Shown here: piece after piece, positions 23,316 to 43,729 of the stretch
Layout: every line of letters starts with the position of its first letter
How positions within the stretch are numbered: the first letter of the stretch is position 1
Assembly (NCBI GenBank): GCA_963663225.1
Contig: OY760142.1
Span: 3,104,001-3,168,000 of the forward strand
Direction of reading: 5' to 3'
DNA: 64,000 bases
Source: Nitrospirota bacterium
GTDB taxonomy: Bacteria; Nitrospirota; UBA9217
Notes under the pieces: model-generated
Told to the model about the DNA's origin: nothing
What the model saw: only the letters and a program-made list of their open reading frames with translations
Databases searched by the model: none
Made by a program: the position numbers and the translations under genes

Positions 23316-23325
23316 GGAGGCTTAA

Positions 23326-25272: not shown

Positions 25273-25383
25273 CCACCGGACTACCGCGAAAGCGACCCGG
25301 AAAAAACGTAGTGGACTACCGAATGGCGCGGACCTCAGAAATTTGAGACTACCCGACGACAGGAGGCCCAAAGGAGGATTTAC

Positions 25384-26361: not shown

Positions 26362-26381
26362 CCCGAAAGGAGTAACACAAG

Positions 26382-27359: not shown

Positions 27360-27366
27360 ATAGCCG

Positions 27367-27393
27367 GGAAGGGGTAACTCCCCTTCCTTTTTT
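27367..27393 (+). terminator. Intrinsic terminator after the capsid gene
   Basis: GGAAGGGG-taact-CCCCTTCC-TTTTTT. Confidence 0.85.
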
Positions 27394-27418
27394 ATCAACC
27401 ATCGAAAGGAGAAGTACC

Positions 27419-27976
27419 ATGAGTGATTTGATTAAAGTCGGCTCCTTCGCGGGAACCGGGGCAATTCTTAACGTAGAGTGCGGGTTTGTGCCGAGCTATG
27501 TGAAGCTCTTCAACCCGAACGATGCCGGATCTCTCATGCCTACGCTTGAGCGTTTTTCAGGTATGGCAGCAGCGTCCGGATTCAAAACCAAGTCCATTAC
27601 GGACAACGCAACAACTGCAAACAAGTCGTCTGAGTATATCACCTCGAACGGCCTGAGCGACTTCGTTGGCGAAGTCCCCGGCAAGGTCCTTGACGGTACC
27701 GCTGCAATTACCGCGGGGGCAAAGTCAATTACCGGAACCAACACGAAGTTTCTCACCGACCTGCGCGCTAGCGATGTTATCACGATTGGCGGCAATCAGT
27801 ACACGGTGGCCGCTGTTAGCTCTGCAACCGCAGCGACAATCGTAGAGGCCGCAGTTAAGACCGAAAGCGCGGCGAATATGACCCGCGTAACCGGCCGTAC
27901 TGCAGGATTCACACTCGGGGCCGAAACGGACCTGAACGTATCCGGCGAATCAGTATTTTACATTGCAGAAAAATAA
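27419..27976 (+). CDS. Capsid decoration/structural protein
   Basis: GSFAGTG...CGFVPSYVKL...YIAE scaffold with an inserted ITGTNTKF fibre-like segment. Confidence 0.65.
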   Translation: MSDLIKVGSFAGTGAILNVECGFVPSYVKLFNPNDAGSLMPTLERFSGMAAASGFKTKSITDNATTANKSSEYITSNGLSDFVGEVPGKVLDGTAAITAGAKSITGTNTKFLTDLRASDVITIGGNQYTVAAVSSATAATIVEAAVKTESAANMTRVTGRTAGFTLGAETDLNVSGESVFYIAEK

Positions 27977-28027
27977 ACCAAAGGGCCGGCCTGGACCGGC
28001 CCATTTTCTCAAAAGGAGGAAATTAAA

Positions 28028-28432
28028 ATGGCTGAAACTCAAACAGTAAACGAAAACACGGGCGCTGCTCCTTTGCCTGCCAAAAATCCATTTTCAGAAG
28101 AAGAAGCAAAGGAAGTCGTGAAAAAAAAACCGGGGCTCAGGTCTGACGATCCTGGCATAACAACGAAAACGAGGGATGAATTGCACAAGCAGAGAATGGT
28201 GCGAATCATTATTGACTCTACCAGAGAAGAAAAAGAAGATGTGCCGGTATCTGTGAACGGCCATTCTTATCTCATAAAGCGCGATAAAGAGGTTGAGCTT
28301 CCGTTGAGCGTCTTGGAAGTGCTCGACAATGCCGAAATGACCGATTATAAGCAGGTCCGGCGGGAAAACGGAGAAGGCTACGACATGGTGCCAACCAAGG
28401 TAAAGCGGTTTCCTTATCGCAGAGTGTTCTAG
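28028..28432 (+). CDS. Conserved phage protein downstream of capsid
   Basis: VPVSVNG..YLIKR...VELP..VLEVL...RFPY motif; strong SD. Confidence 0.75.
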   Translation: MAETQTVNENTGAAPLPAKNPFSEEEAKEVVKKKPGLRSDDPGITTKTRDELHKQRMVRIIIDSTREEKEDVPVSVNGHSYLIKRDKEVELPLSVLEVLDNAEMTDYKQVRRENGEGYDMVPTKVKRFPYRRVF

Positions 28433-28441
28433 GGGGGATAA

Positions 28442-29347
28442 ATGTTTTCTATCACTCACAGGGATGTTGGCGGGAAAACAAGCCTGTATGCTCATGTTCT
28501 ACGCATGGACGACGGTAAGTATTGGGATGAAAGTGCCGATGCCTGGGTAGCAACCGAATCGGGAATGTGCAATGTATCGCTTGCGGAAGATACTACCATG
28601 CCCGGACGGTATGCCGGATCCGCTAATTTTAATCCTTCCCATGGCACGACATACGATATTTCAATTTTTGAAGCTGACGGGACCATGATAGTAAAAACCA
28701 GCCAGCCGTATGTGAGTGATAAGAAAACAGCCTTACAGCTTGTAAACGATATTCAGCAGGAATTGAGATTGCCGAAATCCGCAGACTTTACGGCCCCTCA
28801 TGCAAAGTCCGTTCTGGCGCAACTGAACAAGGCCATTCAAGTTATGAACGAGTCTGACGGTTGGCCGGAGATGAACGTAAAAGGTTCATTTATGACTAAG
28901 GTTGGCGTGTCCGTCTATTCCCTTCGACCGATAAATGCGTCCTATGTGGATATCCTCAAGCGTATGCAGATAGGAACGAACGTGCCCCTCGCAAAACGCA
29001 CCGACGGGAATTTTAAGACGCTGCAGAAAATGAATACAGCCCCGGCGCAGCCGACCGATTACCGGATATTCGGAAGGGCCGGCGGAGTTCTTATTGTTGA
29101 GCTTACTCCTGCCCCGGATATCGCATATCAGGTTGATTTTGAATTACTGATGCGGAATGAATTACTCGCGGCTGTTACGGATATCCCGTTGCTCGACACA
29201 AATGCGATCTATATTGGCGGCTTGGCCTTTACAAAGAAGGATCAAGGCTCATGGTATCAGGACGACATGGCATTGTTTCAAAATCTTGTATCTGCACACG
29301 CTGACAACCAATCAGAGCCTAATTGGGGAGATGCAGAAACGATATGA
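28442..29347 (+). CDS. Head-tail adaptor-like protein
   Basis: TALQLVNDIQQEL...PTDY...PAPD pattern; position before the nozzle gene. Confidence 0.6.
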   Translation: MFSITHRDVGGKTSLYAHVLRMDDGKYWDESADAWVATESGMCNVSLAEDTTMPGRYAGSANFNPSHGTTYDISIFEADGTMIVKTSQPYVSDKKTALQLVNDIQQELRLPKSADFTAPHAKSVLAQLNKAIQVMNESDGWPEMNVKGSFMTKVGVSVYSLRPINASYVDILKRMQIGTNVPLAKRTDGNFKTLQKMNTAPAQPTDYRIFGRAGGVLIVELTPAPDIAYQVDFELLMRNELLAAVTDIPLLDTNAIYIGGLAFTKKDQGSWYQDDMALFQNLVSAHADNQSEPNWGDAETI

Positions 29348-30828
29348 AGAAGAACCAACAGATTGAAGCATTGACCGTTACCCTTAATGACTTTTCCGGT
29401 GGCGAGGCAGATTTACCACTTACCAAAATGAGCGCGAAGTTTGCGACAAAAATGGTGAACGTCTATCCGACCATGACCGGAGGCATTGGGTTTGTTCCTG
29501 GGTATGCTCGCGTGAACCAGATACGATCGAACGAGGCGTTTCAGTCTGGCCACGTTTACATTAAGGCAGACGGGACAAAGATTGTTCTCGTTGCCGGCGG
29601 AGGAAAAATATACCGGGCAAACGGCACAACGCTTGTGTCAATAAAAACAGGATTAAATGCCGGCGCTATTGTTCGGTTCATAACGGCAAACGATTATTGC
29701 ATCATGCTGAACGGTGTTGACGCGCCGATGAAATACGACGGTACTACGGTAACAACCCTTGGTGGCACTCCTCCGGCTACTGCATTTAAGGGTGTGTACC
29801 ACAAGGGCCGCGTATGGATGATCGAACGCACAAACAAGATGCTGGCAAGCTATTCCGGGCTGAACGCCATAGAGGACTACACCACGGCGCACAATGCCGG
29901 ATATATTGATTTCAGGTATGTGCTTAAAACAGGCGACGAACTCACGGATATTGAGAGCTATGTTGACCTGATCGTGTTCTATTTTAAAAACCACGTTGTC
30001 GTGTATTCGGGAAACACGCCTACCGATTACGGAGATTTTCAAATTGTCATACAGCTTGAAGGGGCCGGAGCGTTTACCGACACGGTGAAGGCCACGGGTC
30101 TTGATCATTTATTCCTTTCTCAAATTGGCGCACGTTCTCTCAAGCAGGTAATAAACACCGGCGCGAATCCGGAACAGCTTATTTCAAAAAATATCTTCCA
30201 GCGGCTTTCTGGCGCGATATCCTCGAATCCGAACGGCCCATTTGGATCCGCTCATTTTCAACGCCTCGGCTGGTTCATGGTGCTGATTGGCGACGAAATA
30301 TGGTGCTATGCCTACAACCGGGGTGCATGGTTCAGGATAATAGGGGCCGATGCCCTTGGTATGTTCTCTGACTCTGACGGTTCAAGCGTTTACTTCTGTG
30401 GCCGGGGCTATCTCTATAAATTCGATCAGGGATGGACGTTCGACGGTGCTCCTATGTGGCGCGAGTGGGACATGGGATGGCTAAAGTTTTTCAAGAACGA
30501 AGAGCGAGGGTTTCCGAAGATACTGCAGATTTACGCAACTCCTTCGCAACCGATTACGGTATCAGTCGGAACGCGGTTTGACCTTAATGCCGGAACTCCG
30601 GACTCATTTCAATCTTTCATGCTCGACATGGCCCCTTCCCTTATGGATGAAACGGTGCCCGACATTTGGGAAAACTGCTTTTATATGGACTCAGAAGAAT
30701 ATGCGCCGGAGCGATTGCCATTATTCGGGGGCGGTTCGATGATGCAGTTATGCTTTACCTGCCAGGACACAGCCGGCCCCTGCGAGATAAATAGTCTGAA
30801 AATTCAATTCACCCCAGGAGGCGATTAA
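29344..30828 (+). CDS. Tail nozzle / DNA stabilisation protein
   Basis: DFSGG start, NGVDAPMKYDG, beta-propeller-like composition; ATG overlaps the previous stop. Confidence 0.7.
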   Translation: MKKNQQIEALTVTLNDFSGGEADLPLTKMSAKFATKMVNVYPTMTGGIGFVPGYARVNQIRSNEAFQSGHVYIKADGTKIVLVAGGGKIYRANGTTLVSIKTGLNAGAIVRFITANDYCIMLNGVDAPMKYDGTTVTTLGGTPPATAFKGVYHKGRVWMIERTNKMLASYSGLNAIEDYTTAHNAGYIDFRYVLKTGDELTDIESYVDLIVFYFKNHVVVYSGNTPTDYGDFQIVIQLEGAGAFTDTVKATGLDHLFLSQIGARSLKQVINTGANPEQLISKNIFQRLSGAISSNPNGPFGSAHFQRLGWFMVLIGDEIWCYAYNRGAWFRIIGADALGMFSDSDGSSVYFCGRGYLYKFDQGWTFDGAPMWREWDMGWLKFFKNEERGFPKILQIYATPSQPITVSVGTRFDLNAGTPDSFQSFMLDMAPSLMDETVPDIWENCFYMDSEEYAPERLPLFGGGSMMQLCFTCQDTAGPCEINSLKIQFTPGGD

Positions 30829-32747
30829 TGAGTTATCAGCGCCCTAGCGGTACGACGAGATTTGCATTACGATCTGCAGCTAAATTGGCACTTCCGAGCG
30901 CATGGATAGATGAAGAGCTTAACAGCATATATACGACGCTTAACTCCATGACGCTCTCGGTGAATTCAAGCGAATGGCCGTTGTTCAACGCTACTGCGAC
31001 ATACATAGACGCAAGCAATTTTTCCTGTTCTGGCGATCAGACGGGGATATTCAACGTAAAGCGACGGATCAAAGCCAACCTTTCCGGCACTTATGTTTAC
31101 AGCAAGATATCTACGGCCACTTATAATAGCGGGACCGGGATTACTACCGTCACGCTTGCCGATGCCGTTCTTACCAGTTCCCTTTCTCAAATTTTCTATA
31201 GCATCTTTGATTCTGTGAATAATTCTGTAAGTGCGGAGCTTATTGCTTGCGATGCCGTAGGAGAATTAATATCAACAGAGGTACAAGCCGCCATAGCCGA
31301 AATAGAAGCAAAAAAATTAAAAGAAACCGACATTCTTGGCGATTTTGTAATTTCAGGACTTTTGGGAACGGCCCCGTCAAACAGCCTGTCAATGACGACC
31401 CCAGCAGGAAAAATTTGGCAGAGTGGAGTAAGGATTTCATCCGCAGGATTCACACAGACCTATACGGCTTCACGGGATACCTACGATTCAATAAACAACA
31501 CCGGTGTAATTACCCATACCGAGGTTGCAAATGGCGCTGCAGCGCCAACATTGCCGGCAAATTCTCAATGGATACAGAAAGTAGTTACTGATGCAACAAA
31601 AATAATGACCGTAACAGATTTAAGGTCAATAGCATCAATGCTGCCGGCAGGAGAGATTTTATCTGACTGTGTTGTATCCGGACTGCTTGCCACCGCTCCG
31701 GCGTCTGGTTTCTCTATGACAACGCCAGGAGGAGTGTTTTGTATAAAAGGGAAAAGGACAGTTAAGGCCCCGAGTGATGCCGACCTGACTCACACCTATA
31801 CAGCGAGCAAAGACACATATGTTGATATAGACAGTTCGGGAAATATTGCCAATGTTGAAGTTTCAAATAATGATTATGCTGTAAATGGGCTTCTTTCTAG
31901 TGTTATAAACGCCGGCAGTCTTTTACAGTCAATCCCAGGTGGATCCGCCTGGGTAAAAGGGAAGTACGTTGTCTCCCCTCCCGTGCAGTATACCTATTCG
32001 GCCAATTCAGACACGTACGACAGTATCGACAATACGGGGACCATTACCCATACGGCGGTAAGCAATGGGGCCGCACAACCTTCCCTTCCGGCAAATTCTA
32101 TGTGGCTGCAAAAGGTAGTTACCAACGCAACCCAGGCTACAGCCTTTACCGATTTAAGAAACTTGACCACCAATGAGCCGGCCGTCACGATAAATTCAAT
32201 ACGAATTCAAAAGGTAGTGGCTGACTCATCAAAAATACAGTCCGTGATTGATTATCGAACGCTCAATAAGCCTATTTTGTCAAGGCCGGCGTATCGCGGG
32301 GCATTGGTACGCAGAACGACAAACCAAACTCTCACCGTTGGTGGATACACAACGGTTGATTGGGAAGCAGAGGTTAGAGATACCGATAATATTCACAACG
32401 CAAGCTTAAACACAACAAGACTTACTGTTCCAGCAGGAGCTTCTAAGGTAAGGCTTAGATTTAATGGTTATATTGCTCATGGCGGAACCCCGAACGGAAC
32501 GGCGGCAGCTTACCTATATAAAAATGGTGGAAGTAATTATGTTGGGGCTTGCTGCGATATTATTTACCCTTCGCAATACTCAGGGGCCATTTTTACCCCG
32601 CTTATAGTGTCACCTGTGCTTGACGTTATTCCTGGTGATTTTTTTGAAATAGTAGTTGTGGGAGCCTCCGGGTCTACTTCTGCAACTTTAAGAGGTGGAG
32701 GGGACGGGACGTATTCCGCTTTCTTTGAAATGGATATTGTTGAATGA
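30828..32747 (+). CDS. Tail fibre / receptor-binding protein with three internal repeats
   Basis: Ser/Thr-rich; three ~100-aa repeats ending in QKVV motifs; C1q-like C-terminus (TRLTVPAG...GDFFEI). Confidence 0.75.
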   Translation: MSYQRPSGTTRFALRSAAKLALPSAWIDEELNSIYTTLNSMTLSVNSSEWPLFNATATYIDASNFSCSGDQTGIFNVKRRIKANLSGTYVYSKISTATYNSGTGITTVTLADAVLTSSLSQIFYSIFDSVNNSVSAELIACDAVGELISTEVQAAIAEIEAKKLKETDILGDFVISGLLGTAPSNSLSMTTPAGKIWQSGVRISSAGFTQTYTASRDTYDSINNTGVITHTEVANGAAAPTLPANSQWIQKVVTDATKIMTVTDLRSIASMLPAGEILSDCVVSGLLATAPASGFSMTTPGGVFCIKGKRTVKAPSDADLTHTYTASKDTYVDIDSSGNIANVEVSNNDYAVNGLLSSVINAGSLLQSIPGGSAWVKGKYVVSPPVQYTYSANSDTYDSIDNTGTITHTAVSNGAAQPSLPANSMWLQKVVTNATQATAFTDLRNLTTNEPAVTINSIRIQKVVADSSKIQSVIDYRTLNKPILSRPAYRGALVRRTTNQTLTVGGYTTVDWEAEVRDTDNIHNASLNTTRLTVPAGASKVRLRFNGYIAHGGTPNGTAAAYLYKNGGSNYVGACCDIIYPSQYSGAIFTPLIVSPVLDVIPGDFFEIVVVGASGSTSATLRGGGDGTYSAFFEMDIVE

Positions 32748-32986
32748 AGTTGCTTTCCTTACTGTCTGGACCGCTCGACGCTCGGGACCGGGATATTTTA
32801 AATCAAGTCCTTCGAGCGCAATGGTGGATCAATCCCCTGCTGAACCCGGAATGCGGGAAGGTAGAGCCGGAGCCGAAATACGTGCGAATGGTGGCCTATG
32901 CGAACGGAACGGATTGGAACCCCGGGGGAAATGGCGTGGTGGGATATTACCGATGGACCGGGACGGCCTGGGTATATGTGGGGTGA
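32744..32986 (+). CDS. Small tail-associated protein
   Basis: YANGTDWNPG...YYRWTGTAW motif; coupled to the tail fibre gene. Confidence 0.65.
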   Translation: MKLLSLLSGPLDARDRDILNQVLRAQWWINPLLNPECGKVEPEPKYVRMVAYANGTDWNPGGNGVVGYYRWTGTAWVYVG

Positions 32987-32988
32987 AT

Positions 32989-33447
32989 ATGAGATTAATA
33001 CCTTACGAATATAAGCATAATGCCCGCCTCATGGAAATTTATAAAATAACCGAGCCGTGGGTTGAGTTTCACCGAGCAAAGTTTGACGCATGGTTTGCCG
33101 GCAGAGAAGGATTTGTATTGGTTTCAAGCTGCGGCAAGATAGTTGGGGCCATCACGTTCACAAATTATCAGCCGAATTCTGATATTACAATTCATTGCTC
33201 TGTTCTTCCTGAATACCAAAAACGGTGGCTGACAAAATCCATATACAAGCAGGTATTTGACGTACCGTTTGTAAAATTGGGGCTTGAACGCTGCAGCGGG
33301 TTTATTATCGACGGTTGCACTCCAAGAGGGTTTCACGAAAGACTTGGATTTAAATATGAAGGAACTTTAAGAAGGTCCATAAGGGTACAAGGCGAATACA
33401 GGGATGTTCACCTGTACGGCATGACCAAGGATGAAAGACGATGGTAA
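32989..33447 (+). CDS. GNAT (RimJ/RimL-like) acetyltransferase
   Basis: Likely start MRLIPY; VLPEYQKRW, RLGFKYEGTLR, DVHLYGM. Confidence 0.8.
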   Translation: MRLIPYEYKHNARLMEIYKITEPWVEFHRAKFDAWFAGREGFVLVSSCGKIVGAITFTNYQPNSDITIHCSVLPEYQKRWLTKSIYKQVFDVPFVKLGLERCSGFIIDGCTPRGFHERLGFKYEGTLRRSIRVQGEYRDVHLYGMTKDERRW

Positions 33448-34466
33448 AACGGGTTCTCTTCTGTTTCTATGCAATACCGCTGCATTATAACCACGGGGTA
33501 GCGCTCCTGTCTCGCCTGTGCAAAGACGCTGGCATAGAAGTGGATATTTATATGCCTGAGGACCTTTACCTATTTCAAGAAAAATTGAGAAGCAAAAAAT
33601 ACGACCTTGTTGGATTTTCTATTTCCATACTGAAAGACTTTAATCTGTGCAAGCCTTATATAGATTTGGCTTTGAGAAACGGCAATGAGGTTGCGCTTGG
33701 AGGCACGTTCTTTCGGCGCAACAATCCTAATGAGTATGATGGACGTTGTTTTATCTGTCGGGGAGAAGGTGAACTGTTGCCAGAATTTATTTTGCATGGT
33801 GATGAAACAATATTTAATACCCGTTTCGTAAACCCTGACATTGAGAGCCTACCCCTTCCAGATTTTGAAGCTCCTATGCGGTACGACGGTGACATACCGA
33901 GATTCAAGCCGAGAAAGATGGTGCCCTACTATGCCAGCCGCGGATGTATCGGTAAATGCAACTTCTGCGACGTACAGCATCAGACGGGGGTTGTGCGGAT
34001 CCGGCGTAAAGCCAAAGAGGATATGCAGAATATCGTTAATATCCATTCTCCGGAAATGATTTTTATAGGCGACGAAACGGCACCCTACTACGACGACGGA
34101 TGGCGTGAGTCCTGGGAAGATTTCAAATTCCCATTTTACGCCTACATTCGAGCCGACATACCGAAGGAAACTCTTTTATGGCTTATTGAACGCGGCATGG
34201 TTGGGTGCGCGTTCGGCGTTGAGAGCGGAGATGAGGCGTACCGAAATGATGTGCTTGGCAAAAACCTGTTTGATCGGGATATTTATAGAACCGCTGAAAT
34301 TCTTAGGCAACACAATCGTCACTTCGTCCATTTCTACATGACAGGGACAAGAGGGGAAACGAACGAATTGAAATACAAGACAATAAAATTTATGGAAAGC
34401 ATCGGGGGCTATCCTGTGCTTTTTGGATACACAGAGGTGAAACACGATTTAAGGAAGGGGGCATAA
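33441..34466 (+). CDS. B12-binding-domain-like radical SAM protein
   Basis: DLVGFS...ALGG...CRGEGE N-domain, SRGCIGKCNFC, FGVESG. Confidence 0.85.
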   Translation: MVKRVLFCFYAIPLHYNHGVALLSRLCKDAGIEVDIYMPEDLYLFQEKLRSKKYDLVGFSISILKDFNLCKPYIDLALRNGNEVALGGTFFRRNNPNEYDGRCFICRGEGELLPEFILHGDETIFNTRFVNPDIESLPLPDFEAPMRYDGDIPRFKPRKMVPYYASRGCIGKCNFCDVQHQTGVVRIRRKAKEDMQNIVNIHSPEMIFIGDETAPYYDDGWRESWEDFKFPFYAYIRADIPKETLLWLIERGMVGCAFGVESGDEAYRNDVLGKNLFDRDIYRTAEILRQHNRHFVHFYMTGTRGETNELKYKTIKFMESIGGYPVLFGYTEVKHDLRKGA

Positions 34467-34467
34467 A

Positions 34468-35568
34468 ATGTCTATTGCCATTATAGGCGCTGTTTGTGCG
34501 GTTGGATCTTTGGGACTTGGTATTTATAGCGCTGTCGCCGGCGGGGGTGGTTACAGTTTTGGCGGGACTTCTGTGCCGGCAAATATGATTACTTACGACG
34601 AGAACGGAAACGTATCTCAAGAAGTTATATGGAACGCATCAAAACAGGCGTACGAACAAAAGTCTTATCCTTATGGCAAGGCTCCCGACAAGCCGGCCGC
34701 CCCTACCGCTCCCGATCAGACGCAATATTATGCGAAGGACCAAGACGGAAATTATATACTCGATAAGAACGGGCAGGCTACAGTAGATCAGGCCACTTGG
34801 AATAACGCACAGGCACAGTACCAGATTGAATTAAAAAAATACAACGAAGAAACCCTTCCTCAATGGGAAAAGGATAATGCTACTTGGGTTAAAGCAAAAT
34901 CCGAGTACGAGGCCGACAAGGCTCTTACCGATGAAATTTTAAAAAATAAAAAAACATCTCTTAATATGAGTTGGGAGGAGCGTGTTTCTCATTACAACGA
35001 ATATGCAGATGATTTTGTAAAGCAGCAACACGCCATTCTTGATCCTCAGTTTGAGAAAGAGAAACAAACCGTTGCAGAATCAATGGCATCGCGAGGCATG
35101 ACCGGATCAAGGGCGGAGGTAGACACTAACGCTGAACTTGAAAAGGCAAAATCAAAATCAGACGAAGAGGTTTCCACAAATGCAAATATGTATAAATACG
35201 CCCTTGCGAATCAGGAATTGCAGGGAGATTTAAGTATATACAACGCTATAAAAGCCGGCCAAGGGGCTGATACTGCGCTTGCCCTACAGAAGCAGACCGC
35301 GGGAGTCCAGGGGGCAGTATTGGGCACACAAGCATCATTGGCAAGCACAACTGCCGCAAACAACGCATCTTATCAATCGTGGCTGTCAAATTACCTAGTG
35401 AACCAAAGCCGGTCTAAAAGCTTAACGGATACCGCCTCCGGCTTGGCGTACCTGTACGGATACGGGAAAAAGGCGGGATGGTGGAGCCCTGCGAATTCTG
35501 GTGGCGGGTCTGGTGTTTTAAGCAACTCTACTTCTGGTTATTTACCAGCAACGGCGGATATTGGATAA
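34468..35568 (+). CDS. Internal virion/ejection protein
   Basis: Hydrophobic Gly/Ala N-terminus, MASRGMTGS motif, helical Q/A-rich body. Confidence 0.65.
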   Translation: MSIAIIGAVCAVGSLGLGIYSAVAGGGGYSFGGTSVPANMITYDENGNVSQEVIWNASKQAYEQKSYPYGKAPDKPAAPTAPDQTQYYAKDQDGNYILDKNGQATVDQATWNNAQAQYQIELKKYNEETLPQWEKDNATWVKAKSEYEADKALTDEILKNKKTSLNMSWEERVSHYNEYADDFVKQQHAILDPQFEKEKQTVAESMASRGMTGSRAEVDTNAELEKAKSKSDEEVSTNANMYKYALANQELQGDLSIYNAIKAGQGADTALALQKQTAGVQGAVLGTQASLASTTAANNASYQSWLSNYLVNQSRSKSLTDTASGLAYLYGYGKKAGWWSPANSGGGSGVLSNSTSGYLPATADIG

Positions 35569-36415
35569 GGAGATAATCATGGCCTCTCTTGCAAGCATTT
35601 TTGCGAAACCGAACTCAGGCGTAAGCGATAGCGATGCAACAAACAGATTATTAAGCGCGAGGGCGGGAGTTACCAATACCACGATGAACATGATACCGCG
35701 TTCTGGTTTTGCCGCCCCTCTTGTGTCTGGACTGCTTGGGTATCAGACTGCGGGGCAAGAAATTGATGCTGAAGGGCAAAAGAAAATGACAGATTTCTTG
35801 TCTACGTTTCAAAAGCTCTCCAGGGTAAGCAAGCTGATGGCCGTGAAGTTTTTTAACGAGAACGGCCCCGAAGTAGGAATTGATGCACCGATAGATGGGG
35901 TTGAGTCACAGCCTGATATTACGTCGGCCCACTTTAAAGACGGCCACATTGTCGGACTTGGTATGGACGGAATTTATATGCCTGGACCGGATGGGAAATG
36001 GACACCTGCTACATCTGACTTTCTAGACCAGTTAAGACAAGATAATCTTACAAAAAAGAAGTCAAGCGGCGGGTCCGGAAGCACAGAAAAACGCACAACG
36101 GTATTAAATTCGTATACCAACATAAATCAAAAAATTATTTCAGCAACAAATAATATGGTTGGCCAGACGGCAACGCAAAAAGTACAGACTCAAGCCGTTA
36201 TTGATGACCTTGTTCGTCAAAAAAAGAATATGGAAAAATTGTACCCTTGGCTTGTCGATAAATCTGCCGCACCGACAGGAGAAGTCGCCCCCGCACCGCC
36301 CGCACCAGCGCCGGCAGCCAATAATAACGACACGCTCGGCAGCATACTGAAAAGATTACAGCCAAACTATACCCAAAGCCCCTTACAAGCTGACGATAAT
36401 GGACTGTATAAATGA
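35561..36415 (+). CDS. Internal virion/ejection protein
   Basis: Lies between ejection-type genes; start may be ATG at 35579. Confidence 0.55.
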   Translation: MDKEIIMASLASIFAKPNSGVSDSDATNRLLSARAGVTNTTMNMIPRSGFAAPLVSGLLGYQTAGQEIDAEGQKKMTDFLSTFQKLSRVSKLMAVKFFNENGPEVGIDAPIDGVESQPDITSAHFKDGHIVGLGMDGIYMPGPDGKWTPATSDFLDQLRQDNLTKKKSSGGSGSTEKRTTVLNSYTNINQKIISATNNMVGQTATQKVQTQAVIDDLVRQKKNMEKLYPWLVDKSAAPTGEVAPAPPAPAPAANNNDTLGSILKRLQPNYTQSPLQADDNGLYK

Positions 36416-39400
36416 GCGAATGGGACGACATTATTGCAGACAAGAGATTTATTGATCTGCCCGACGAGGACAAGCAGAAGGTTGCCGATATTTATTTTAA
36501 CGATAAGATTGTAACCGATAGACGTTGGAGTGAATTGGACCAGGCGACACAGGATCAGGTACGCACCGAATTTATGAAGTCTGTTTCCCCTGCCCCCATA
36601 CAGCAATCCGTTCCGGCTACAGTATCGTCCATGCCGTCCACGGCTTTGATTACGAAAGGCCCCGAGGATATATACTCCTCATTCGGTAGTGGCGTTAATA
36701 CGGCTGCGGCGACTATGGCCAAAGGCATGGATTCTATTGCGACGTATATAAGCGAGAAAACCGGATTACCAAAAGGCGGACTATTCGAAAAAGCAGCAAA
36801 GGAATATGAATCAAACGCCGCATATTGGAACCAGAAGATTAAGGAGAACGGTGTTGATGCGATCACGCAGATTGTAGGCAAAGCTGCCGGCGGAGCGGTC
36901 CCCGGTCTTGCAGATTTTGCGTTAGGACCAGCGTATTACGGCGTAAAGGGCGCGGCGGAAGCCGGAAATAAGGGTGAATCAGAAGCGTGGGGCGCTTTCA
37001 AAGGGGCGTCAGAGCGGTACATTACCGGCAGAGTTCTTGAAGCGCTGAATATGCTTAAAATGGCGTACCGTATCCCTGGTATGGGCGGACTTGGCGCCGC
37101 ACAAGCGACCGTAGAGGGCGGAGATGTGGCCGAAAGCGCCGGCACCATGGCGCTGTATGGCATCATGGGTCCGCGTGGGGGAATGGGCCCAAAAGACGTT
37201 GTGAGAGAGTTTAAATCTTCGATGGCAACGGGAGAGGGCACACCGGCCCCTATCCCTGAACCTCCCGCCGGTCCTCCTCCTACCGGCGGGGCTCCTAATG
37301 AAACCGCGCAGGGCGGCGAACGACGTACGAATCAAACGCTCCGCGATATGATATCAGATTATGAAACACGCGCAGTCGGCGGCGACAGAGAATCATTGCA
37401 GCATCTTATTGACTCCGGAGTTTGGGGCGATCCTCTTACCGGGCTCCTGAATAAAAACGGAATAGAAAAAATGAGGCCAGCCGTCGATGCGAAGCCGGAT
37501 AAATTTTATCTCGACCTCGACAACTTTAAGCAGATTAACGACAAGCTTACTCATGCCGGAGGCGATCAGATAATTTCCGAAGTCGGCAAAAAAATGCGCG
37601 AGATTTTTTCTGAGGACGATATTGCCGCACGGCATGGCGGGGATGAGTTTTCCGGAGGCGGGACAGCGCTTGCAGGAAAACTCGAACGATTGAGAAGTGA
37701 CCTTGAAAATGCTATAATTCAAATCAGAATACCAAAGGGCTCGGAGTTTCCTAAAGATAGCGGAAACATTCTGCAGAACGATCTTGTCCTTGAGCAGCCG
37801 GGTATAAGGTTGTCTTTTGGTGTTGGGAAAACGAATGAGGAGGCTTACAATGCGAACACCGCAAATAAAAGTGAAAGGCTTAAAGCTGGCCTCCGTACCG
37901 AACGCAACAAAGCGGCTTCCGACGTTGGGACAGCTGTCGAAGATATTACCAAAGGGATCCAAGTTCCTGGGGATCAAGTGGCCAGAGGCAGCCAAAGCGC
38001 CACAGCTACCGCAGATAGACCAGCAACAGCCGGAAGAATAGAATTACCTACCCCTGAGAAAATCACTCATAATCCGAACGCTGCAGACAATAAGTGGCCT
38101 TCTGGTAAATTTCGAGAACACGCCCCATTCTCCGAAGAGGACAAAGGTTGGCTTAACGATCTTCGCTCTCTCATCGCCGGTATTGAAGCGCCCGGCAAGC
38201 TTAACCCGAACGGAACAGTATCAACCTCTACCCTGCCCCCTCACCTGAGAAGCCTTGGACTGACCAAAGCCGATTATGACGTTGTGAATATGGCTTCTAA
38301 GGGCGAGCCTATTACCTGGAACCAGTACGTTAAAATTCAATCTTGGGTTGAAGAGCATAAAGTTGCGTTTGGCTTCCGGCCGGGTGAAGGATGGCCAAAG
38401 CCAGAGGATTTTTTTAAAGACGACTTTGTGACCGATGAAGAAGTGCCTTTTGAACGCGGGGCTCCCGGCGATTTTAAACTTACTCCGGACGAGCAAAAAC
38501 CACAAAAACAGAAGCCGCAACAGCAGGGCCTTAACCTTGGTATGAAGGGCGAAGATATGAGAGCGCCCAAAAAAGAGGGTCCGGGCGTTACGATGGATGA
38601 AACAGAGCTTGGCAAGGCCACGAACGCGGCCAAGGACCGCGAGGCGCAAGAGCGGCTATTTGACGCATCAAACTATGATCCGGCTGCAGTTCATTCCGAA
38701 ATGGAAATGCCGGAGATTGTGCAGCTGGTCAAAAAATTAACCGACCGATATCCTCAAGTCAACAAAGGCAAGATATCCGTGGCCATTGGGAAGGCCATAG
38801 GTTTTTTCGAGCCGTCAACCCGTCGCATTGTAATTTCGAATCACCTGTCAGAATTTGAAGGCTTGGCAGAGCGCGTCTTGGCGCATGAGCTTGGCCATGC
38901 CGTAGACTTCTCCGGCGCTCCGGGTAACGAAACAATGAGCCGCGGCAATATCCTTGGACGCATTGCATCACTCCGAAAGTATATGCAAGACCTTCTCGAA
39001 GAGCACCCTGGGGCAACCGAGGGCATACTTACTGATGCGGACCGAGCCCGGTTCGCGAAGGAAGCCGAGAGAATGGCAAAAGAGGAACAGGCTGGTCGGC
39101 AAGAAAGTGGCGGCACGGTCCCGCCCGAGGATATTCTTGCCATTTGGCGCGATGCGAGTGCGCGGGATAAAAACAAGGACCTGTACGACTATATTGCAAA
39201 GCTGTCCGCTGCGGAAAAGTCCAAAATCGTCAAGGACGCCATGAAGGGCATATCAAATATCACCCTGCGGGATCAGATTGCCGGCGGACATTACGAGCGC
39301 CTTGCACAGCGCGAGAAGGAAATATACCAAGACCTGCTCCGCCAGGAAATCATTAAACGGCGTCTGTATGAAAAAGAAACCATCATGGACGAGTTGAAAA

Positions 39401-42249
39401 AACTCACTCAAATAATCAAGCCGTTCGATGATGGCATAAACCCCGCAATTACGAAATACCGCTATTCTTCGCAAGAACTGTACGCCGATGCCGTATCACA
39501 GTTGCTTGTCGATCCTTCCCTACTCAAGAACACCGCCCCGACATTTCATAAGGCGTTTATGAGTTACCTTGAACGGAAGCCGGATTTTAAAGCCGAATGG
39601 GACCGGCTGCAGGATCTTGCCAAGGACCGCGAGGATATTCTATCTGAACGCCAGCAAAGAACATACGAGGGATATAAAGAACAAGAGGATTTGATTGCAG
39701 AGAACAGCAAGGAGCGCAAAATTCCGCTCATGCACGAAGTATTTAAGGCCCTGGTTGAGAAGAACGCGGATCTTTACGAAAAGGTAAAAGAAGTAAAGCG
39801 GCGCGACGGCGTTATTGAAGATACCAAAAACCCTCGCTACTGGACTGAACAATTACCGTATATAAATGGCCCCGTATTTACGTTTCTGCATGATGTGAAT
39901 GGCAAGGTAATGAACATTTCCAAGAAGCACAATATTACCCTTGATCAAATCGGAGAAATTTTCGAGCGGATGAGGGTTTCGACAGAACGGAAGAACATAC
40001 CGAACCCCGGCGGAATGACCGAGAAAACATCATTGGACGCCCTGGGAAAGTTAAAAGCAGATTTGGGGCCGGAGAGATTTGACGCTTTAAAGAAGGCCTA
40101 TGATGATTTTCAGTCTGCTTGGCAAAAACACGTTGTCGACAAAGTGCGGGAAGCTAATATGTGGAGCAAGGAACTGCAGGAATACGCCGAGAAAAACCTT
40201 AACTATGCCACCTTCCAGCACGTTCGGGAGTTTACCGGGAAACTCGAAGAACAAATAGGATACGAGAACAGCGCCAGGGTTTTTAAGCAGGTAGGCACAT
40301 TCGCGGAAATTCGCAACCCCTTTGTGGCCACCATTATGAAGGGCATGGCATTAGTGCGCGCTGCCGAAATTAACATGGCTAAAAAGGCAACCACGGATTT
40401 TTTGCTTAGAAACTTCGGGTCCGACACCATTCAAAAGGCAAAAGGCCGCTTTAATGGCAAATTCATGGAGTTTAAGAACGTGGACAGCGAAAAGGTCGGG
40501 ACCATCGTTTACATGGAAGAGGGAAAACTTCATGCCTATTACGTTCCGAAAGGAATAGCTGAATCGTTTGAGCGCGAGCCGCATATGGCGCAAATGATCA
40601 TGCGCGTATGGAATTTGATGAACGTGCCAATTCGCAATATCCTCGTTAGCCGCAATCCCCTCTGGATGGCGTTTAACGTGCCAAGAGACTTTATCGAAAC
40701 ATGGAAAAATACTCCGGACCTTACCATGTTCAAATTATTGCAGCGGTACGCCCAGGCCGTGCCTCATGCGTATAAAGAGGCATTTAAGGGAGAGCTTACG
40801 CCGACGGTTCGCAAGATGTACGAGAACAAGGAGCTTGTTATAGAGCGACATTTCCGGACGCTCGAAACCGACGATCCCATGAACGAGCTTAAAGATACTA
40901 TGCGGTCCTTTGGGCTGGCCCCGCAGCGGTACAACAATATCGTCTTAAAACCACTCAAAGCATTGTGGGACTTCCTTGGCAATACGGGGAAGTTTACAGA
41001 ACGGCTTGGCAAGGTTGCCGGATCCATAGAACTGCAGGAGCGGGTGAACCGTGGAACCATGGGACAAATGGAGAAGGCGCACCGCGTTAGACAACTGGTA
41101 GGCACTCCCGATATTCATGCTGGCGGATATTTAAAGCCGTTTTACAATAATATTTTCCTCTTCTCCAACGTGGCGATGAGAGGCTTCTATGCTTCGTATG
41201 AGGCATTTAGGGCCCGGCCGGTCGACTATCTGTGGAAAACAACGAAGTACAATGTAATGCCAAAATTGGTCATGGCTGCAGCTGCGGCCGGATTGCTCGG
41301 TGATGAGTTAAAGAAAATATATGCGGGGGTTTCTGAATACTACAAGACGAATTATCAGGTTATACCTCTTGGTCTTACCGAGAAGGGGAAGAGCGTTATT
41401 ATAACCCTTCCGCAAGACTACGCCGGCACGGGCATAGGGGCATTGGTTTGGAAGGCGTCTCAAGGGAAGTGGGTCGGTAAAAAAGGAATGACCGCGGCTA
41501 TGGTCCAGCAAACGCCGTATAGCTTTAATCCCCTGCTTAAAGTTGGCGCGGACTTGGCAAACTACCTTTCCGCGTCCCAGGTCTACGATGATTACAGGGG
41601 GAAAACGGTAATTTCCGACACCGAGGCGAAGGCTGCGGATTGGCATACCGCAATAAAGCTGGCAAAGTACGAGGCCGGACAGCTTGGGGCGAACGCTGTC
41701 TATCGGTTTGAATATGACGATCCTGCCCGCGTGAAATCGGACTTGGAAAAAATGCTCGACTATCCGCCCGGAAATGTTATTGGCAGATATCTAAAGGTGA
41801 CGGATTACGGGAACAGAGAGCAGCTTGAAGAGGTGACGGATCCTGTACAGCAAAAGGCCGCGCGAAGAACACTAAAAATAAACGACAAGATTAAAGACAG
41901 CATCCGTGAGTCCGGCGGCAAGTATGACGAAAAGAACATAGAGGACTTGTACGAGAAATTAAGAAACGATGGAACTCTTGAGCCGGGAGCCTCCGGATCA
42001 ACATTCAGGCAATTTAAGGCGAAGTACAACCGGTTTGCAGAGGGAAGATTTGACAATTACAAAATAGACGCCTTTGTGAAGGCGACAACAAGCGATGAAA
42101 AAGCCGCGCTGCTGAGTCACTATAAAGACATTATGCCGGCCAAAGAGTATGACGCCCTGTATGATCAGCTTATCGAAGAGGGTTTTTTAAAACGAGGGAC
42201 CGTGAAGTCTCTGAATCGAATGAACGAAAGGGAGGGCAGCAAGAAATGA
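36412..42249 (+). CDS. Large polyvalent ejection protein with GGDEF and zincin (HExxH) domains
   Basis: 1945 aa, last structural gene before lysis; DPLTGLLN...DLDNFKQIND...HAGGD...ARHGGDEF; LAHELGHAVD...ELYAD; LPD38-like C-terminal region. Confidence 0.85.
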   Translation: MSEWDDIIADKRFIDLPDEDKQKVADIYFNDKIVTDRRWSELDQATQDQVRTEFMKSVSPAPIQQSVPATVSSMPSTALITKGPEDIYSSFGSGVNTAAATMAKGMDSIATYISEKTGLPKGGLFEKAAKEYESNAAYWNQKIKENGVDAITQIVGKAAGGAVPGLADFALGPAYYGVKGAAEAGNKGESEAWGAFKGASERYITGRVLEALNMLKMAYRIPGMGGLGAAQATVEGGDVAESAGTMALYGIMGPRGGMGPKDVVREFKSSMATGEGTPAPIPEPPAGPPPTGGAPNETAQGGERRTNQTLRDMISDYETRAVGGDRESLQHLIDSGVWGDPLTGLLNKNGIEKMRPAVDAKPDKFYLDLDNFKQINDKLTHAGGDQIISEVGKKMREIFSEDDIAARHGGDEFSGGGTALAGKLERLRSDLENAIIQIRIPKGSEFPKDSGNILQNDLVLEQPGIRLSFGVGKTNEEAYNANTANKSERLKAGLRTERNKAASDVGTAVEDITKGIQVPGDQVARGSQSATATADRPATAGRIELPTPEKITHNPNAADNKWPSGKFREHAPFSEEDKGWLNDLRSLIAGIEAPGKLNPNGTVSTSTLPPHLRSLGLTKADYDVVNMASKGEPITWNQYVKIQSWVEEHKVAFGFRPGEGWPKPEDFFKDDFVTDEEVPFERGAPGDFKLTPDEQKPQKQKPQQQGLNLGMKGEDMRAPKKEGPGVTMDETELGKATNAAKDREAQERLFDASNYDPAAVHSEMEMPEIVQLVKKLTDRYPQVNKGKISVAIGKAIGFFEPSTRRIVISNHLSEFEGLAERVLAHELGHAVDFSGAPGNETMSRGNILGRIASLRKYMQDLLEEHPGATEGILTDADRARFAKEAERMAKEEQAGRQESGGTVPPEDILAIWRDASARDKNKDLYDYIAKLSAAEKSKIVKDAMKGISNITLRDQIAGGHYERLAQREKEIYQDLLRQEIIKRRLYEKETIMDELKKLTQIIKPFDDGINPAITKYRYSSQELYADAVSQLLVDPSLLKNTAPTFHKAFMSYLERKPDFKAEWDRLQDLAKDREDILSERQQRTYEGYKEQEDLIAENSKERKIPLMHEVFKALVEKNADLYEKVKEVKRRDGVIEDTKNPRYWTEQLPYINGPVFTFLHDVNGKVMNISKKHNITLDQIGEIFERMRVSTERKNIPNPGGMTEKTSLDALGKLKADLGPERFDALKKAYDDFQSAWQKHVVDKVREANMWSKELQEYAEKNLNYATFQHVREFTGKLEEQIGYENSARVFKQVGTFAEIRNPFVATIMKGMALVRAAEINMAKKATTDFLLRNFGSDTIQKAKGRFNGKFMEFKNVDSEKVGTIVYMEEGKLHAYYVPKGIAESFEREPHMAQMIMRVWNLMNVPIRNILVSRNPLWMAFNVPRDFIETWKNTPDLTMFKLLQRYAQAVPHAYKEAFKGELTPTVRKMYENKELVIERHFRTLETDDPMNELKDTMRSFGLAPQRYNNIVLKPLKALWDFLGNTGKFTERLGKVAGSIELQERVNRGTMGQMEKAHRVRQLVGTPDIHAGGYLKPFYNNIFLFSNVAMRGFYASYEAFRARPVDYLWKTTKYNVMPKLVMAAAAAGLLGDELKKIYAGVSEYYKTNYQVIPLGLTEKGKSVIITLPQDYAGTGIGALVWKASQGKWVGKKGMTAAMVQQTPYSFNPLLKVGADLANYLSASQVYDDYRGKTVISDTEAKAADWHTAIKLAKYEAGQLGANAVYRFEYDDPARVKSDLEKMLDYPPGNVIGRYLKVTDYGNREQLEEVTDPVQQKAARRTLKINDKIKDSIRESGGKYDEKNIEDLYEKLRNDGTLEPGASGSTFRQFKAKYNRFAEGRFDNYKIDAFVKATTSDEKAALLSHYKDIMPAKEYDALYDQLIEEGFLKRGTVKSLNRMNEREGSKK

Positions 42250-42581
42250 TCATTTTCGGGCGCAGACTGAAAGACAACTGGTTAATGAAAATTTTGATTA
42301 TTCTTTTCTTTGCCGTTACTCCGGTGGTAGTCCTGGGCGCTGCGAACCCGTCACAAGCGGTCATTGCTTACCCTACTCCTTCGTGGATTGATCATATTGA
42401 TGTGGTCAGGGCCTTGATTGGCGGACTATTCGCGATAATAGGTTTTTTTGTCGTGAGGCTGTTATTAAAATTTGACAGGAATAATAGCGAAATTTTCCGA
42501 CGGCTGAAAGAAGTAGAATCAAAACACGCTTGGCTTGAAGGATATTGCGCGGGGCAGCACGGACGAAAGAAAGAAGGTTGA
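42246..42581 (+). CDS. Holin-like membrane protein
   Basis: Two hydrophobic segments and a charged tail; first gene of the lysis cassette. Confidence 0.55.
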   Translation: MIIFGRRLKDNWLMKILIILFFAVTPVVVLGAANPSQAVIAYPTPSWIDHIDVVRALIGGLFAIIGFFVVRLLLKFDRNNSEIFRRLKEVESKHAWLEGYCAGQHGRKKEG

Positions 42582-42583
42582 TA

Positions 42584-43069
42584 ATGCCGAAAAAAATAGA
42601 CAACATCATCATTCATTGCAGCGACAGCGTTTGGGGCTGCGCTCGGGAAATAAAACTCTGGCATACCCTTCCCCCGCCAGATGGCCGAGGCTGGTCTGAT
42701 ATCGGGTATCATTTCGTCATTCTGAACGGTCGAATTACTCCAAAACAAGAACTTTCTGCACTTGACGGCTGCGTTGAGTGTGGCAGGTATCTTGACGAGG
42801 ACGATATTATAGCGCCGTTCGAGATTGGTATTCATTGCCTGGGATACAATGACCACTCTATCGGAATATGCCTTGTCGGGAAAAGTCAATTCACGCAAAA
42901 CCAGATGGAATCGCTCAAGGACCTGTGCCTAGAGCTTTGCCAGCTGCATGAGATACCGGCTAACAATATCTTGGGGCATTGCGAAACCGTGAGCGGCCAG
43001 AAGGAAGGAAAGAGTTGCCCTAATTTCGACGTTGCGGAAATCAGGGAATATTTGAGAGGTGCGTTATGA
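42584..43069 (+). CDS. Endolysin, N-acetylmuramoyl-L-alanine amidase (T7 lysozyme-like)
   Basis: IIIHCS, GWSDIGYHFVI, SIGICLVG, GHCE, KSCP. Confidence 0.92.
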   Translation: MPKKIDNIIIHCSDSVWGCAREIKLWHTLPPPDGRGWSDIGYHFVILNGRITPKQELSALDGCVECGRYLDEDDIIAPFEIGIHCLGYNDHSIGICLVGKSQFTQNQMESLKDLCLELCQLHEIPANNILGHCETVSGQKEGKSCPNFDVAEIREYLRGAL

Positions 43070-43311
43070 ATTTTCTTAAATCAATCGCCCGATTCGTTGC
43101 AAAAGGCAAAACTGTAATGTTCGCTTACACGATGAGCATGATAGCCCTGTCCTGGTACGCGACGGTTGCTAAGACGCCGATTGACGGCAGCGTGGCGACG
43201 ATGTATAGCGCCGCCCTTGTTGCATACGCCGGTTCAAAAGGCCACGAACTTTACGAGGCGAACAAAAACAAAATAACTCTCAAGGAGGGAGAGATAAATG
43301 CGAGTGCTTAA
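43066..43311 (+). CDS. Holin/antiholin-like small membrane protein
   Basis: Two TM-like helices; overlaps the endolysin stop. Confidence 0.6.
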   Translation: MNFLKSIARFVAKGKTVMFAYTMSMIALSWYATVAKTPIDGSVATMYSAALVAYAGSKGHELYEANKNKITLKEGEINASA

Positions 43312-43729
43312 ATTTTCGATTGCCATTATTTTCGCAATGCTGCTGGCATCGTGCTCGACAACGAAGTACCTGCCGGCAATGATATCTGAAACCGGCAAGA
43401 TTGTGCAGGAAATAAAACCGCCGGCAACAGAGAGTAGAATAAACGTGCCGCCCGGTGTGGACCCCGGAGATATTCTTGTTCACGGAAAGACACAAGATGG
43501 CGCGGAGTTTTGGGTTGAGAAAAGAACTTTTCATAAGGAACGTATTTTTACAACCGGCAGCACAACAGCATCACCACTTATTGAATTCACCAAAATGAAA
43601 CGAGATTGGTCCTGGGCGTGGTGGACTGGCGGAATTCTCGTTTTTCTCGTTTTAGCCAACTATTTGCTCAAATCGTTTTGCGGAATCAATCCTTTCGGCT
43701 GGATAATCGGCAAATTCCTGAAAAAATAA
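43298..43729 (+). CDS. Probable unimolecular spanin
   Basis: Lipobox LLAS-C at the N-terminus plus a C-terminal TM helix; last gene of the lysis cassette. Confidence 0.7.
   Translation: MRVLKFSIAIIFAMLLASCSTTKYLPAMISETGKIVQEIKPPATESRINVPPGVDPGDILVHGKTQDGAEFWVEKRTFHKERIFTTGSTTASPLIEFTKMKRDWSWAWWTGGILVFLVLANYLLKSFCGINPFGWIIGKFLKK

Follow-up and report, generated by a model that had tools for sequence, protein, structure and literature searches.

The window analysed here is a 64,000-nucleotide stretch of the genome of a Nitrospirota bacterium (contig OY760142.1, positions 3,104,001 to 3,168,000; coordinates below count from its first letter). It contains a ~45-kb prophage whose structural module closes with a giant plus-strand gene (36412..42249), encoding a polyvalent-type protein of 1945 amino acids (aa) termed P0001. 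An earlier reading of the letters alone (the original prediction) had described P0001 as a virion ejection protein carrying a diguanylate cyclase domain devoid of the product-inhibition site (I-site), and had named the host pilus protein PilB as a receptor for the product, cyclic di-GMP (c-di-GMP).

P0001 combines a GGDEF module, a zincin-like metallopeptidase region and a conserved C-terminal core. The GGDEF module, delimited by Pfam, an AlphaFold2 model and structure alignment, folds as aa 310-510 (37339..37941, +), with its fold core at ~aa 335-495. The metallopeptidase region, recognised from an HExxH motif, a weak Pfam match, an AlphaFold2 model and a fold match, spans aa 760-1075 (38689..39636, +) and bears HELGH at aa 825-829 (nucleotides (nt) 38884-38898). 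The core occupies 39637..42249 (+) and is common to the whole family of relatives, as delimited by the family alignment and by a match of the core hidden Markov model (HMM) to an LPD38-bearing protein. Directly 3' of the giant gene lies a lysis block (42246..43729, +) containing an amidase gene (42545-43069); P0001 ends the structural block, as the original prediction had it.

The GGDEF module of P0001

The four motifs from which the domain had been read, DPLTGLLN, YLDLDNFKQIND, HAGGDQII and ARHGGDEF, are all present in the translation, with the GGDEF active-site residues (aa 409-413) encoded by GGC GGG GAT GAG TTT at 37636..37650 (+). The Pfam GGDEF profile PF00990 matches aa 340-413 with E = 1.9e-13 and 50.9 bits (cut-off 23.8), covering profile positions 4-84 of 161, and NCBIfam TIGR00254 matches with E = 3.6e-14. 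Judged by its sequence, the GGDEF identity of the domain is far beyond chance. Translation and clade alignment show SEDD (aa 400-403; 37609..37620, +) where the RxxD inhibitory site would stand, five residues ahead of GGDEF, so that the RxxD arginine is missing, as had been observed before. The module is accompanied by neither a sensory nor a receiver domain. Compared with 26 relatives, P0001 shows a glycine-rich FSGGG stretch after GGDEF that is 3 residues shorter than in most, and a private 14-residue insertion, EFPKDSGNILQNDL, in a later hairpin of the domain.

Structure prediction recovers the domain over its full length. Module alignments of 6 and then 27 sequences were used, both running through the entire domain. 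With the 27-row alignment, AlphaFold2 yields a model with a mean predicted local distance difference test score (pLDDT) of 90.4 and a predicted template-modelling score (pTM) of 0.84, displaying the full GGDEF order of strands and helices. Foldseek against the PDB returns 92 matches at E ≤ 0.001, the best of them all GGDEF-domain chains, mostly cyclases, with a probability of 1.0. Superimposition of the model (residues 26-186) onto DgcR (6zxb) with VIA-align gives a Z score of 16.8 and a root-mean-square deviation (rmsd) of 1.9 Å over 138 residues. Searched with a profile of the 27 clade members, solved structures yield 49 GGDEF chains at E ≤ 1e-5, led by 3ign (E = 3.7e-24, profile positions 8-154 of 175), and a clade HMM built without P0001 scores the P0001 module at 95.2 bits over positions 15-170, against 30-82 bits for host GGDEF domains. 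The Pfam alignment ends at GGDEF because the second half of the domain has diverged, not because it is absent, and the P0001 domain is, as modelled, a complete GGDEF fold. The two computational checks proposed with the original prediction, a Pfam HMM search and structure prediction of aa ~335-495, come out in favour of a GGDEF domain, the former over the first half of the profile. The accompanying remark that the strands after GGDEF are shortened holds for the local 3-residue shortening alone; the whole second half is predicted and superposed, and the domain is not truncated.

The residues expected of an active cyclase are in place. Asp368, at the metal position, is kept in all 27 aligned modules; at the guanine positions, Asn376 is kept in 26 and Asp385 in 24, the guanine-specifying Asp being replaced by Thr or Asn in the other three. 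The column of Arg407, which precedes GGDEF, holds Arg in 21 and His in 6 modules, and Gly410 and Glu412 are invariant (27/27). The roles of Asp368 in metal binding and of Asn376 and Asp385 in guanine contact, as well as that of Arg407, are assumed here from work on PleD. The signature of Hypr GGDEF domains, which synthesise cyclic GMP-AMP (cGAMP), we take to be Ser in place of the guanine-specifying Asp; this Ser is absent from P0001, where residue 385 is Asp. That 27 diverged sequences retain the active-site residues speaks for catalysis being under selection. GGDEF catalysis requires dimerisation. A homodimer prediction with two copies of the module and the 27-row alignment scores 0.13 and 0.09, below the mark of 0.42, and carries no weight either way.

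Phage-type modules on a conserved chassis

Absence of the I-site, a feature frequent in GGDEF domains though not obligatory, extends through the clade: all 27 aligned modules lack the RxxD arginine. The host provides a control, in which 12 GGDEF domains collected by a motif search for GG[DE]E[FY] were inspected and 11 carry RxxD at the canonical spacing. The host genome contains 17 GGDEF matches in total, 16 besides P0001. A maximum-likelihood tree was computed from 55 domains, comprising the 27 clade rows, a solo protein of Bordetella phage FP1, 13 host domains and the 14 nearest cellular representatives, with three partial host matches (2398430, 1696820 and 2083069) left out. The 28 phage-type rows, P0001 among them, are set apart from all host and cellular rows (27) by a branch with support of 99/97. 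The tree suggests, with the caution due to a long branch, that the P0001 module is excluded from the cellular cyclase group. Recent capture of the domain from the host was considered and rejected: the host domains, which score 127-177 bits on Pfam, lie across the 99/97 branch from P0001. Small solo phage proteins, the FP1 protein included, also bear the phage-type GGDEF signature with its tail G-x-R...R-G-x-x-P, and FP1 is the row most identical to the P0001 module (35% over 146 columns).

A six-module profile searched against 1.84 billion representatives returns 506,166 proteins at E ≤ 0.001, in effect all of the GGDEF superfamily, and narrows to 252 at E ≤ 1e-30, with many giant proteins in the top rows. 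A Pfam scan of 16 such giant proteins detects GGDEF in all 16, polyvalent markers in seven, SLT in one and GGDEF only in eight. The markers of the seven are LPD1, LPD5, LPD22 (one below the cut-off), LPD38, LPD39, ART-PolyVal, MuF_C or InPase. The core of P0001 is present in only 2 of the 146 representatives newly listed by this search; like GGDEF modules therefore sit on several different polyvalent chassis. An InPase domain directly precedes GGDEF in P0120 (aa 1042-1383) and P0212 (aa 700-1019), an adjacency that suggests a coupled pair in which the pyrophosphatase would pull the pyrophosphate-releasing cyclase reaction forward.

The family to which P0001 belongs is defined by its C-terminal 1200 aa, which consist of the HExxH peptidase and the large conserved core of ~900 aa. 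Searching with the GGDEF region among proteins of similar length retrieves only cellular multidomain cyclases, matched over 35-59% of the region, and no second copy of the exact fusion. The fusion relatives surface only in a search with the C-terminal core (aa 740-1900), which returns 71 relatives of 1083-3388 aa in the protein collection, with E down to 0 and 25-50% identity. Among IMG/VR viral contigs, 57 loci encode a relative. HExxH, mostly as HEIGH, is found in 70 of the 72 family proteins (P0001 counted), the exceptions being P0048 and P0102.

The N-terminal parts of the relatives carry diverse Pfam modules: ddrB-ParB, InPase, PBECR1, ART-PolyVal with a methyltransferase, MuF_C, RelA_SpoT, SLT, 2'-5' RNA ligase/LigT, DprA_WH, RadC, M23, ResIII and DnaJ. 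UniRef calls one of the relatives a 'Large polyvalent protein associated domain-containing protein'. A GGDEF-type module is present in six of the 72 proteins, a count that leaves out the regular-expression matches P0048 and P0050. Five of them (P0001, P0038, P0039, P0041 and P0047, the last with the motif GGDEI) exceed the Pfam GGDEF cut-off, and P0040, with the motif GGDEG, reaches 21.8 bits, below the cut-off, in a near full-length match. The closest relative, P0038, is 50% identical to P0001 in the core and matches Pfam GGDEF over its full length (2-159 of 161). The clade HMM also matches the longest frame of 5 of the 57 IMG/VR loci (L004, L021, L005, L026 and, weakly, L051), some of these longest frames being cut by contig ends.

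Pfam matches the peptidase region of P0001 weakly, to DUF6782/M78. An AlphaFold2 model of aa 760-1075 from 16 rows has a pLDDT of 73.9. Exhaustive comparison of this model gives the catalytic domain of anthrax lethal factor as the best match (Z score of 8.9, rmsd of 3.9 Å, 143 residues) and as the only chain with Z ≥ 8 among 48,161, with Pro-Pro endopeptidases, PprI and CapP lower; Foldseek returns nothing at E ≤ 0.001, its best match being selecase (E = 0.37). The model thus lends modest support to a zincin fold. The core aligns to no solved structure at E ≤ 10 when searched as a single sequence, and a 15-row family profile reaches a best E of 0.43, at chance level. The family-core HMM matches P0238, a protein with LPD38, ART, LPD1, LPD5 and GGDEF domains, at E = 2.7e-15, and the atlas neighbours of the core, found by language-model features, are viral LPD38/LPD39 clusters with scores of 0.96-0.98.

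Two further observations concern the chassis. A motif [AGSP]-D-[ATVS]-G-G-[YW], mostly ADTGGY, stands ~75-85 aa ahead of HExxH in 19 of the 72 members of the family and recurs at module borders in P0039 (aa 484 and 710, flanking GGDEF) and P0047 (aa 1053, 1088 and 1439), making it a candidate self-processing site of the zincin peptidase. In P0001 the motif is absent or degenerate (FDASNY), and no claim of GGDEF module release is therefore made for it. The N-terminal 300 aa of P0001 contain no strongly hydrophobic segment (Kyte-Doolittle, 19-residue windows, mean >1.2). An N-terminal membrane anchor is accordingly unsupported, the sole 19-residue window above 1.2 being aa 1615-1633 (~41254-41310), VMPKLVMAAAAAGLLGDEL, within the conserved core, where it may form a membrane-inserting helix.

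This architecture assigns P0001 to the polyvalent proteins, the giant phage, plasmid and conjugative-element proteins for which co-injection with DNA was predicted by Iyer, Burroughs, Anand, de Souza and Aravind (2017, J Bacteriol; PMC5512222). In the sections of that paper used here, a zincin-like metallopeptidase is the commonest hub domain, with a predicted role in polypeptide processing, and a lethal-factor match is reported for the polyvalent peptidases, in agreement with the P0001 peptidase model (PMC5512222). The same sections place RelA/SpoT and GGDEF domains in polyvalent proteins, 'while not very widespread', and describe an Acetonema longum prophage protein that combines GGDEF, SNF2, MTase, MPTase and ART domains (PMC5512222). 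For such a cyclase they propose interference with host nucleotide signals or action against rival elements (PMC5512222).

Prophage, virion module and host c-di-GMP network

The prophage is bounded by a 48-nt imperfect repeat that is 92% identical (44/48). The left copy, attL (17328..17375), is a partial copy of the end of tRNA-Thr, and the right copy, attR (62710-62757), lies inside the tRNA-Thr(CGT) gene itself (62710..62784, -); the integrase gene is at 60967-62019. Gene annotation places the packaging and structural module, terminase through radical SAM, at 18887..36415 (+), with the terminase at 18887-20305, an SU10-type portal at 20518-22725 and the major head protein at 26382-27359. The late region runs in the order terminase, portal, podophage GP4 Gp80-like protein, major head protein, virion and tail proteins, acetyltransferase, radical SAM/B12 protein, two genes without assigned function, the giant gene and lysis. 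No tape-measure, tube or sheath family is matched in the late region, which fits a podovirus.

The gene neighbourhood of the giant gene recurs in related viral contigs. Loci L004, L005, L006 and L047 share w28442, w29323 and w34468, which lie upstream of the giant gene in the window, with their order kept, and three of the four also share w30828. In the annotated loci L004, L021 and L024, the genes ahead of the giant gene encode tail fibre, tail and virion proteins, and the one behind it an endolysin or a tail protein; for L007 and L015 almost no annotation was obtained. The cultured pelagiphage Baldr encodes a 2329-aa homologue with 25.6% identity over aa 741-1810 (E = 2e-53). Ahead of the homologue come the genes for tail tubular proteins A and B, followed by three of small or medium size, and behind it comes the tail fibre gene; gp16, an internal virion protein, takes this position in T7. 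These positions point to a virion or ejection role for P0001 and its relatives.

Several features of the prophage stand apart from this module order. Within the tail and virion module, just ahead of the giant gene, 32695-34466 (+) encodes an acetyltransferase of 250 aa and a radical SAM/B12-binding protein of 341 aa; at the equivalent place, L004:3510-5151 encodes an enoyl-CoA hydratase-like protein and a radical SAM protein. AT-rich repeated words (TAATACTTT... and ...AAAGTAATACTTT) occur at 17917-17941, 43849-43873 and 56333-56357, and at 18356-18377 and 43812-43833; they stand where the late, recombination and early gene blocks begin, as possible promoter or operator sites of the phage. Near the integrase end, a 9-nt tandem array of GCC GCC GAT/TAT/CGT-type units (59198-59485) comprises 22 overlapping 93-nt registers inside or opposite an open reading frame at 58772-59524.

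On the host side, a type IV pilus cluster (693-8164, -) is arranged as pilB-pilT-pilC-pilS-pilR, an order typical of Geobacter-like bacteria. The pilB gene (6323..8164, -) lies outside the prophage, ~9 kb to the left of attL, with shikimate dehydrogenase, radical-SAM and other genes in between; the earlier caution that proximity of the pil genes to the prophage may be incidental is borne out by this host location. The PilB N terminus reads RLGSMLVSSGLITDDQLKKALSSQ, KSEGG, RLGTILVKLGFVQEDKLMTFLSKQ, in which aa 6-29 and 35-58 form two 24-residue RLG...Q motifs with a 5-residue spacer (aa 6-58; nt 7991-8149), which we take to follow the exact MshEN consensus; both full motifs claimed previously are thus found. 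Pfam MshEN matches aa 59-146 with E = 3.5e-26. Two 24-residue motifs with a 5-residue spacer are the MshEN architecture described in a review of these systems (PMC11656802). The motif reading and the Pfam match together make the PilB N terminus a predicted MshEN c-di-GMP receptor.

PilB is, at the same time, one receptor among many. The complete host genome (3.26 Mb) contains 26 PilZ matches, 3 EAL matches and 2 c-di-GMP-I riboswitches, besides 16 GGDEF genes that belong to the host itself; with the PilZ proteins and riboswitches counted, PilB is one of ~30 candidate receptors. In the systems covered by the part of the review used here, c-di-GMP binding to MshEN favours pilus extension (PMC11656802), so that a pilus block for superinfection exclusion does not follow directly. 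Phages are described there as targeting PilB by other means, through the Tip, Aqs1 and Zip peptides (PMC11656802), and a phage peptide that binds the host cyclase YfiN is described as raising c-di-GMP (PMC8085984; PMC11461919). The proposal of PilB as the target finds no specific backing in this setting: the gene is outside the prophage, c-di-GMP has many other candidate receptors, and the direction of the pilus response in the reviewed systems is wrong for simple exclusion.

Proposed mechanism, alternatives and known systems

The explanation we favour, with a probability of about 0.55 for the whole, is that P0001 is a polyvalent virion protein that would be injected and whose GGDEF module would make c-di-GMP without feedback. 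A conserved C-terminal chassis, the zincin-like HExxH peptidase plus the ~900-aa core, would carry an exchangeable N-terminal effector module, here a phage-type GGDEF domain. As an internal or ejection protein, P0001 would form part of the virion and would pass into the cell together with the DNA, two steps that we consider probable, and could then be cleaved by its own peptidase. The GGDEF modules would be paired as a dimer through the oligomeric protein or via the helices preceding the domain, and would turn GTP into c-di-GMP with no feedback to restrain them. That P0001 is catalytically active in making c-di-GMP is the part in which we place the most trust and is quite probable; should the enzyme be active, it is likely to escape product inhibition. 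The host c-di-GMP network would be pushed to a 'high' state before, or independently of, phage transcription, the outputs considered being pili, motility, matrix and competition with cyclic-nucleotide immune signals. What the data show is the fold with its conserved residues, the family to which the protein belongs and the genomic setting; delivery in the virion, cleavage, pairing, the product and its benefit to the phage are inferred. Cyclases turn over at ~0.1-1 per second. By a rough estimate, a handful of dimers inside a cell of femtolitre volume could plausibly bring c-di-GMP to micromolar levels in minutes, a supply that is not generous against three EAL enzymes.

Several points weigh against this explanation. 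The P0001 module sits on a long branch (1.67), and its position within the phage side of the tree is not resolved. The FSGGG shortening or the private 14-aa insertion could impair catalysis. The protein has no Pfam LPD domain (none at E ≤ 1). Comparison of the core with the encapsidation-linked C-terminal region of the N4 virion RNA polymerase gives no hmmsearch match at E ≤ 10 and an hhalign probability of 0.2% (single-sequence template), and comparison with T7 gp16 and gp15 gives hmmsearch E values of 0.074 and 0.29 and an hhalign probability of 0.4% (single-sequence templates). No virion proteomics was found for P0001 or its relatives; the case for packaging and injection is drawn from gene position and from the computational argument of 2017. 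Ejection-protein copies are few, ~3 for T7 gp16 (T7 record note), and the product could be small relative to the host's three EAL enzymes. A late product that has no off-switch could equally act in the producing cell.

This last point leads to the alternative that survives best, which we nevertheless hold to be unlikely: an active, unregulated cyclase would work in the cell that makes it, either at a late stage of infection or once the prophage is induced, for example to stop motility and hold the cell in a biofilm or to change the envelope ahead of lysis, with any packaging being incidental. The gene does lie in a late structural operon, its product has neither RxxD nor a sensor domain, so that nothing visible would silence the enzyme once made, and late proteins far outnumber the few copies in a virion. 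The chassis relatives, however, carry early-strike effectors (ART-PolyVal, nucleases, SLT and M23) that are sensible on entry alone, and the clade also includes small solo proteins encoded in early or replication regions, as in Bordetella phage FP1.

A little less credit is due to the possibility that the GGDEF fold serves another chemistry, producing cGAMP, cyclic di-AMP (c-di-AMP) or linear pppGpG, or acting as a nucleotide sink or decoy against cyclic-nucleotide antiphage immunity. Interference with host nucleotide signals is among the options named in the sections of Iyer et al. used here (PMC5512222), and the polyvalent family also has RelA/SpoT and 2H phosphoesterase modules aimed at nucleotide signals. 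The clade, moreover, is clearly apart from the cellular cyclases, and the Thr or Asn substitutions in 3 of its 27 members affect the very residue that specifies guanine. In P0001 itself, by contrast, the guanine positions are canonical (Asn376 and Asp385), the Hypr Ser is lacking and the GTP-binding set is whole, which favours c-di-GMP as the product.

Improbable, too, is a GGDEF module that is catalytically dead or nearly so, serving the ejection protein for structure, GTP binding or oligomerisation. The glycine-rich shortening, the private insertion, the long branch, a Pfam match confined to the first half and the drift of the motif to GGDEG in P0040 and GGDEI in P0047 would all fit such decay. 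Set against them, every catalytic position of P0001 is intact, the second half is modelled with confidence and superposes with an rmsd of 1.9 Å, and the conservation of the active site among the 27 sequences speaks for an enzyme under selection. Least probable is that the injected cyclase acts through host PilB MshEN, resetting pilus assembly for superinfection exclusion: PilB does have two complete MshEN motifs and a Pfam MshEN domain, and other phage devices directed at PilB and at c-di-GMP signalling are known, but pilB lies ~9 kb from attL, outside the prophage, 26 PilZ matches and 2 riboswitches offer alternative receptors, c-di-GMP favours pilus extension rather than loss in the reviewed systems, and the GGDEF-bearing relatives belong to metagenomic phages that are unrelated and for which no link to pili is known.

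A wider reading is put forward as no better than a tentative possibility: the phage GGDEF lineage, found both on injected polyvalent proteins and among small early proteins of phages, having no I-site and no sensor, bearing a signature tail and sometimes accompanied by a pyrophosphatase, may consist of synthases delivered ready-made or made at once, flooding the host with c-di-GMP in the first minutes. If true, this would be the first known instance of a synthase of signalling nucleotides carried by a virion, and a general route of host takeover. The idea of an injected cyclase is not new. GGDEF domains in injected polyvalent proteins and their interference with nucleotide signals were put forward in 2017, in the passages cited above (PMC5512222); the concept is already published as a computational prediction, and P0001 is a further member. 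Searching the literature on phage-borne diguanylate cyclases and GGDEF polyvalent proteins, we found that paper and follow-ups, and no experimental test; the single match on phage-encoded cyclases as such concerns a peptide binding a cyclase of the host. New in the present analysis are the lack of the I-site throughout the clade, set against a host control, a phage-type group apart from cellular cyclases, the pyrophosphatase adjacency in some relatives, and a compact, testable example in a complete genome. With its cyclase and peptidase, in a host that has a rich c-di-GMP network, P0001 offers a test of whether a phage can rewrite a second messenger without gene expression.

Like the YfiN-interacting phage peptide, P0001 would stand for a phage-driven rise of host c-di-GMP; that peptide, as described in the part of the source used here (PMC8085984), is instead expressed in the cell and binds a host cyclase, and is not an enzyme brought by the phage. 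The Bordetella phage FP1 protein (APL99338.1, annotated 'diguanylate-cyclase GGDEF domain protein') shares the phage-type signature, but is a stand-alone protein of 156 aa (L002:7947-8417) from the early/replication region of a siphovirus, with AGDEF in place of GGDEF, no hairpin and no virion chassis. T7 gp16 corresponds to the Baldr homologue in genome position, and its N-terminal SLT domain has counterparts in P0046 and P0244. P0001 differs from gp16 in being much larger and in having a peptidase, and no sequence similarity between them is detectable (hmmsearch E of 0.074 and hhalign probability of 0.4% with a single-sequence template, as above).

With the cellular cyclases PleD, WspR, DgcR and Dcsbis, the P0001 module shares the fold (Z scores of 15-17, rmsd of ~2 Å), the GGDEF motif and the metal and guanine residues. 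It differs from them in having no RxxD, no sensory and no receiver domain, in its own tail G-x-R ... R-G-x-x-P, and in lying on the opposite side of the 99/97 branch. The closest resemblance is to the polyvalent proteins, which, in the account drawn on here (PMC5512222), are likewise giant and multidomain, with an HExxH zincin hub, exchangeable unrelated effectors and a virion context, and whose Pfam families ART-PolyVal, PBECR1, InPase, MuF_C, ddrB-ParB and LPD1/5/22/38/39 recur in the relatives of P0001. P0001 departs from them in having no LPD match of its own in Pfam, its link to LPD38 running through the family HMM and language-model features only, and in being a simple two-enzyme version of the class, a GGDEF module joined to a peptidase.

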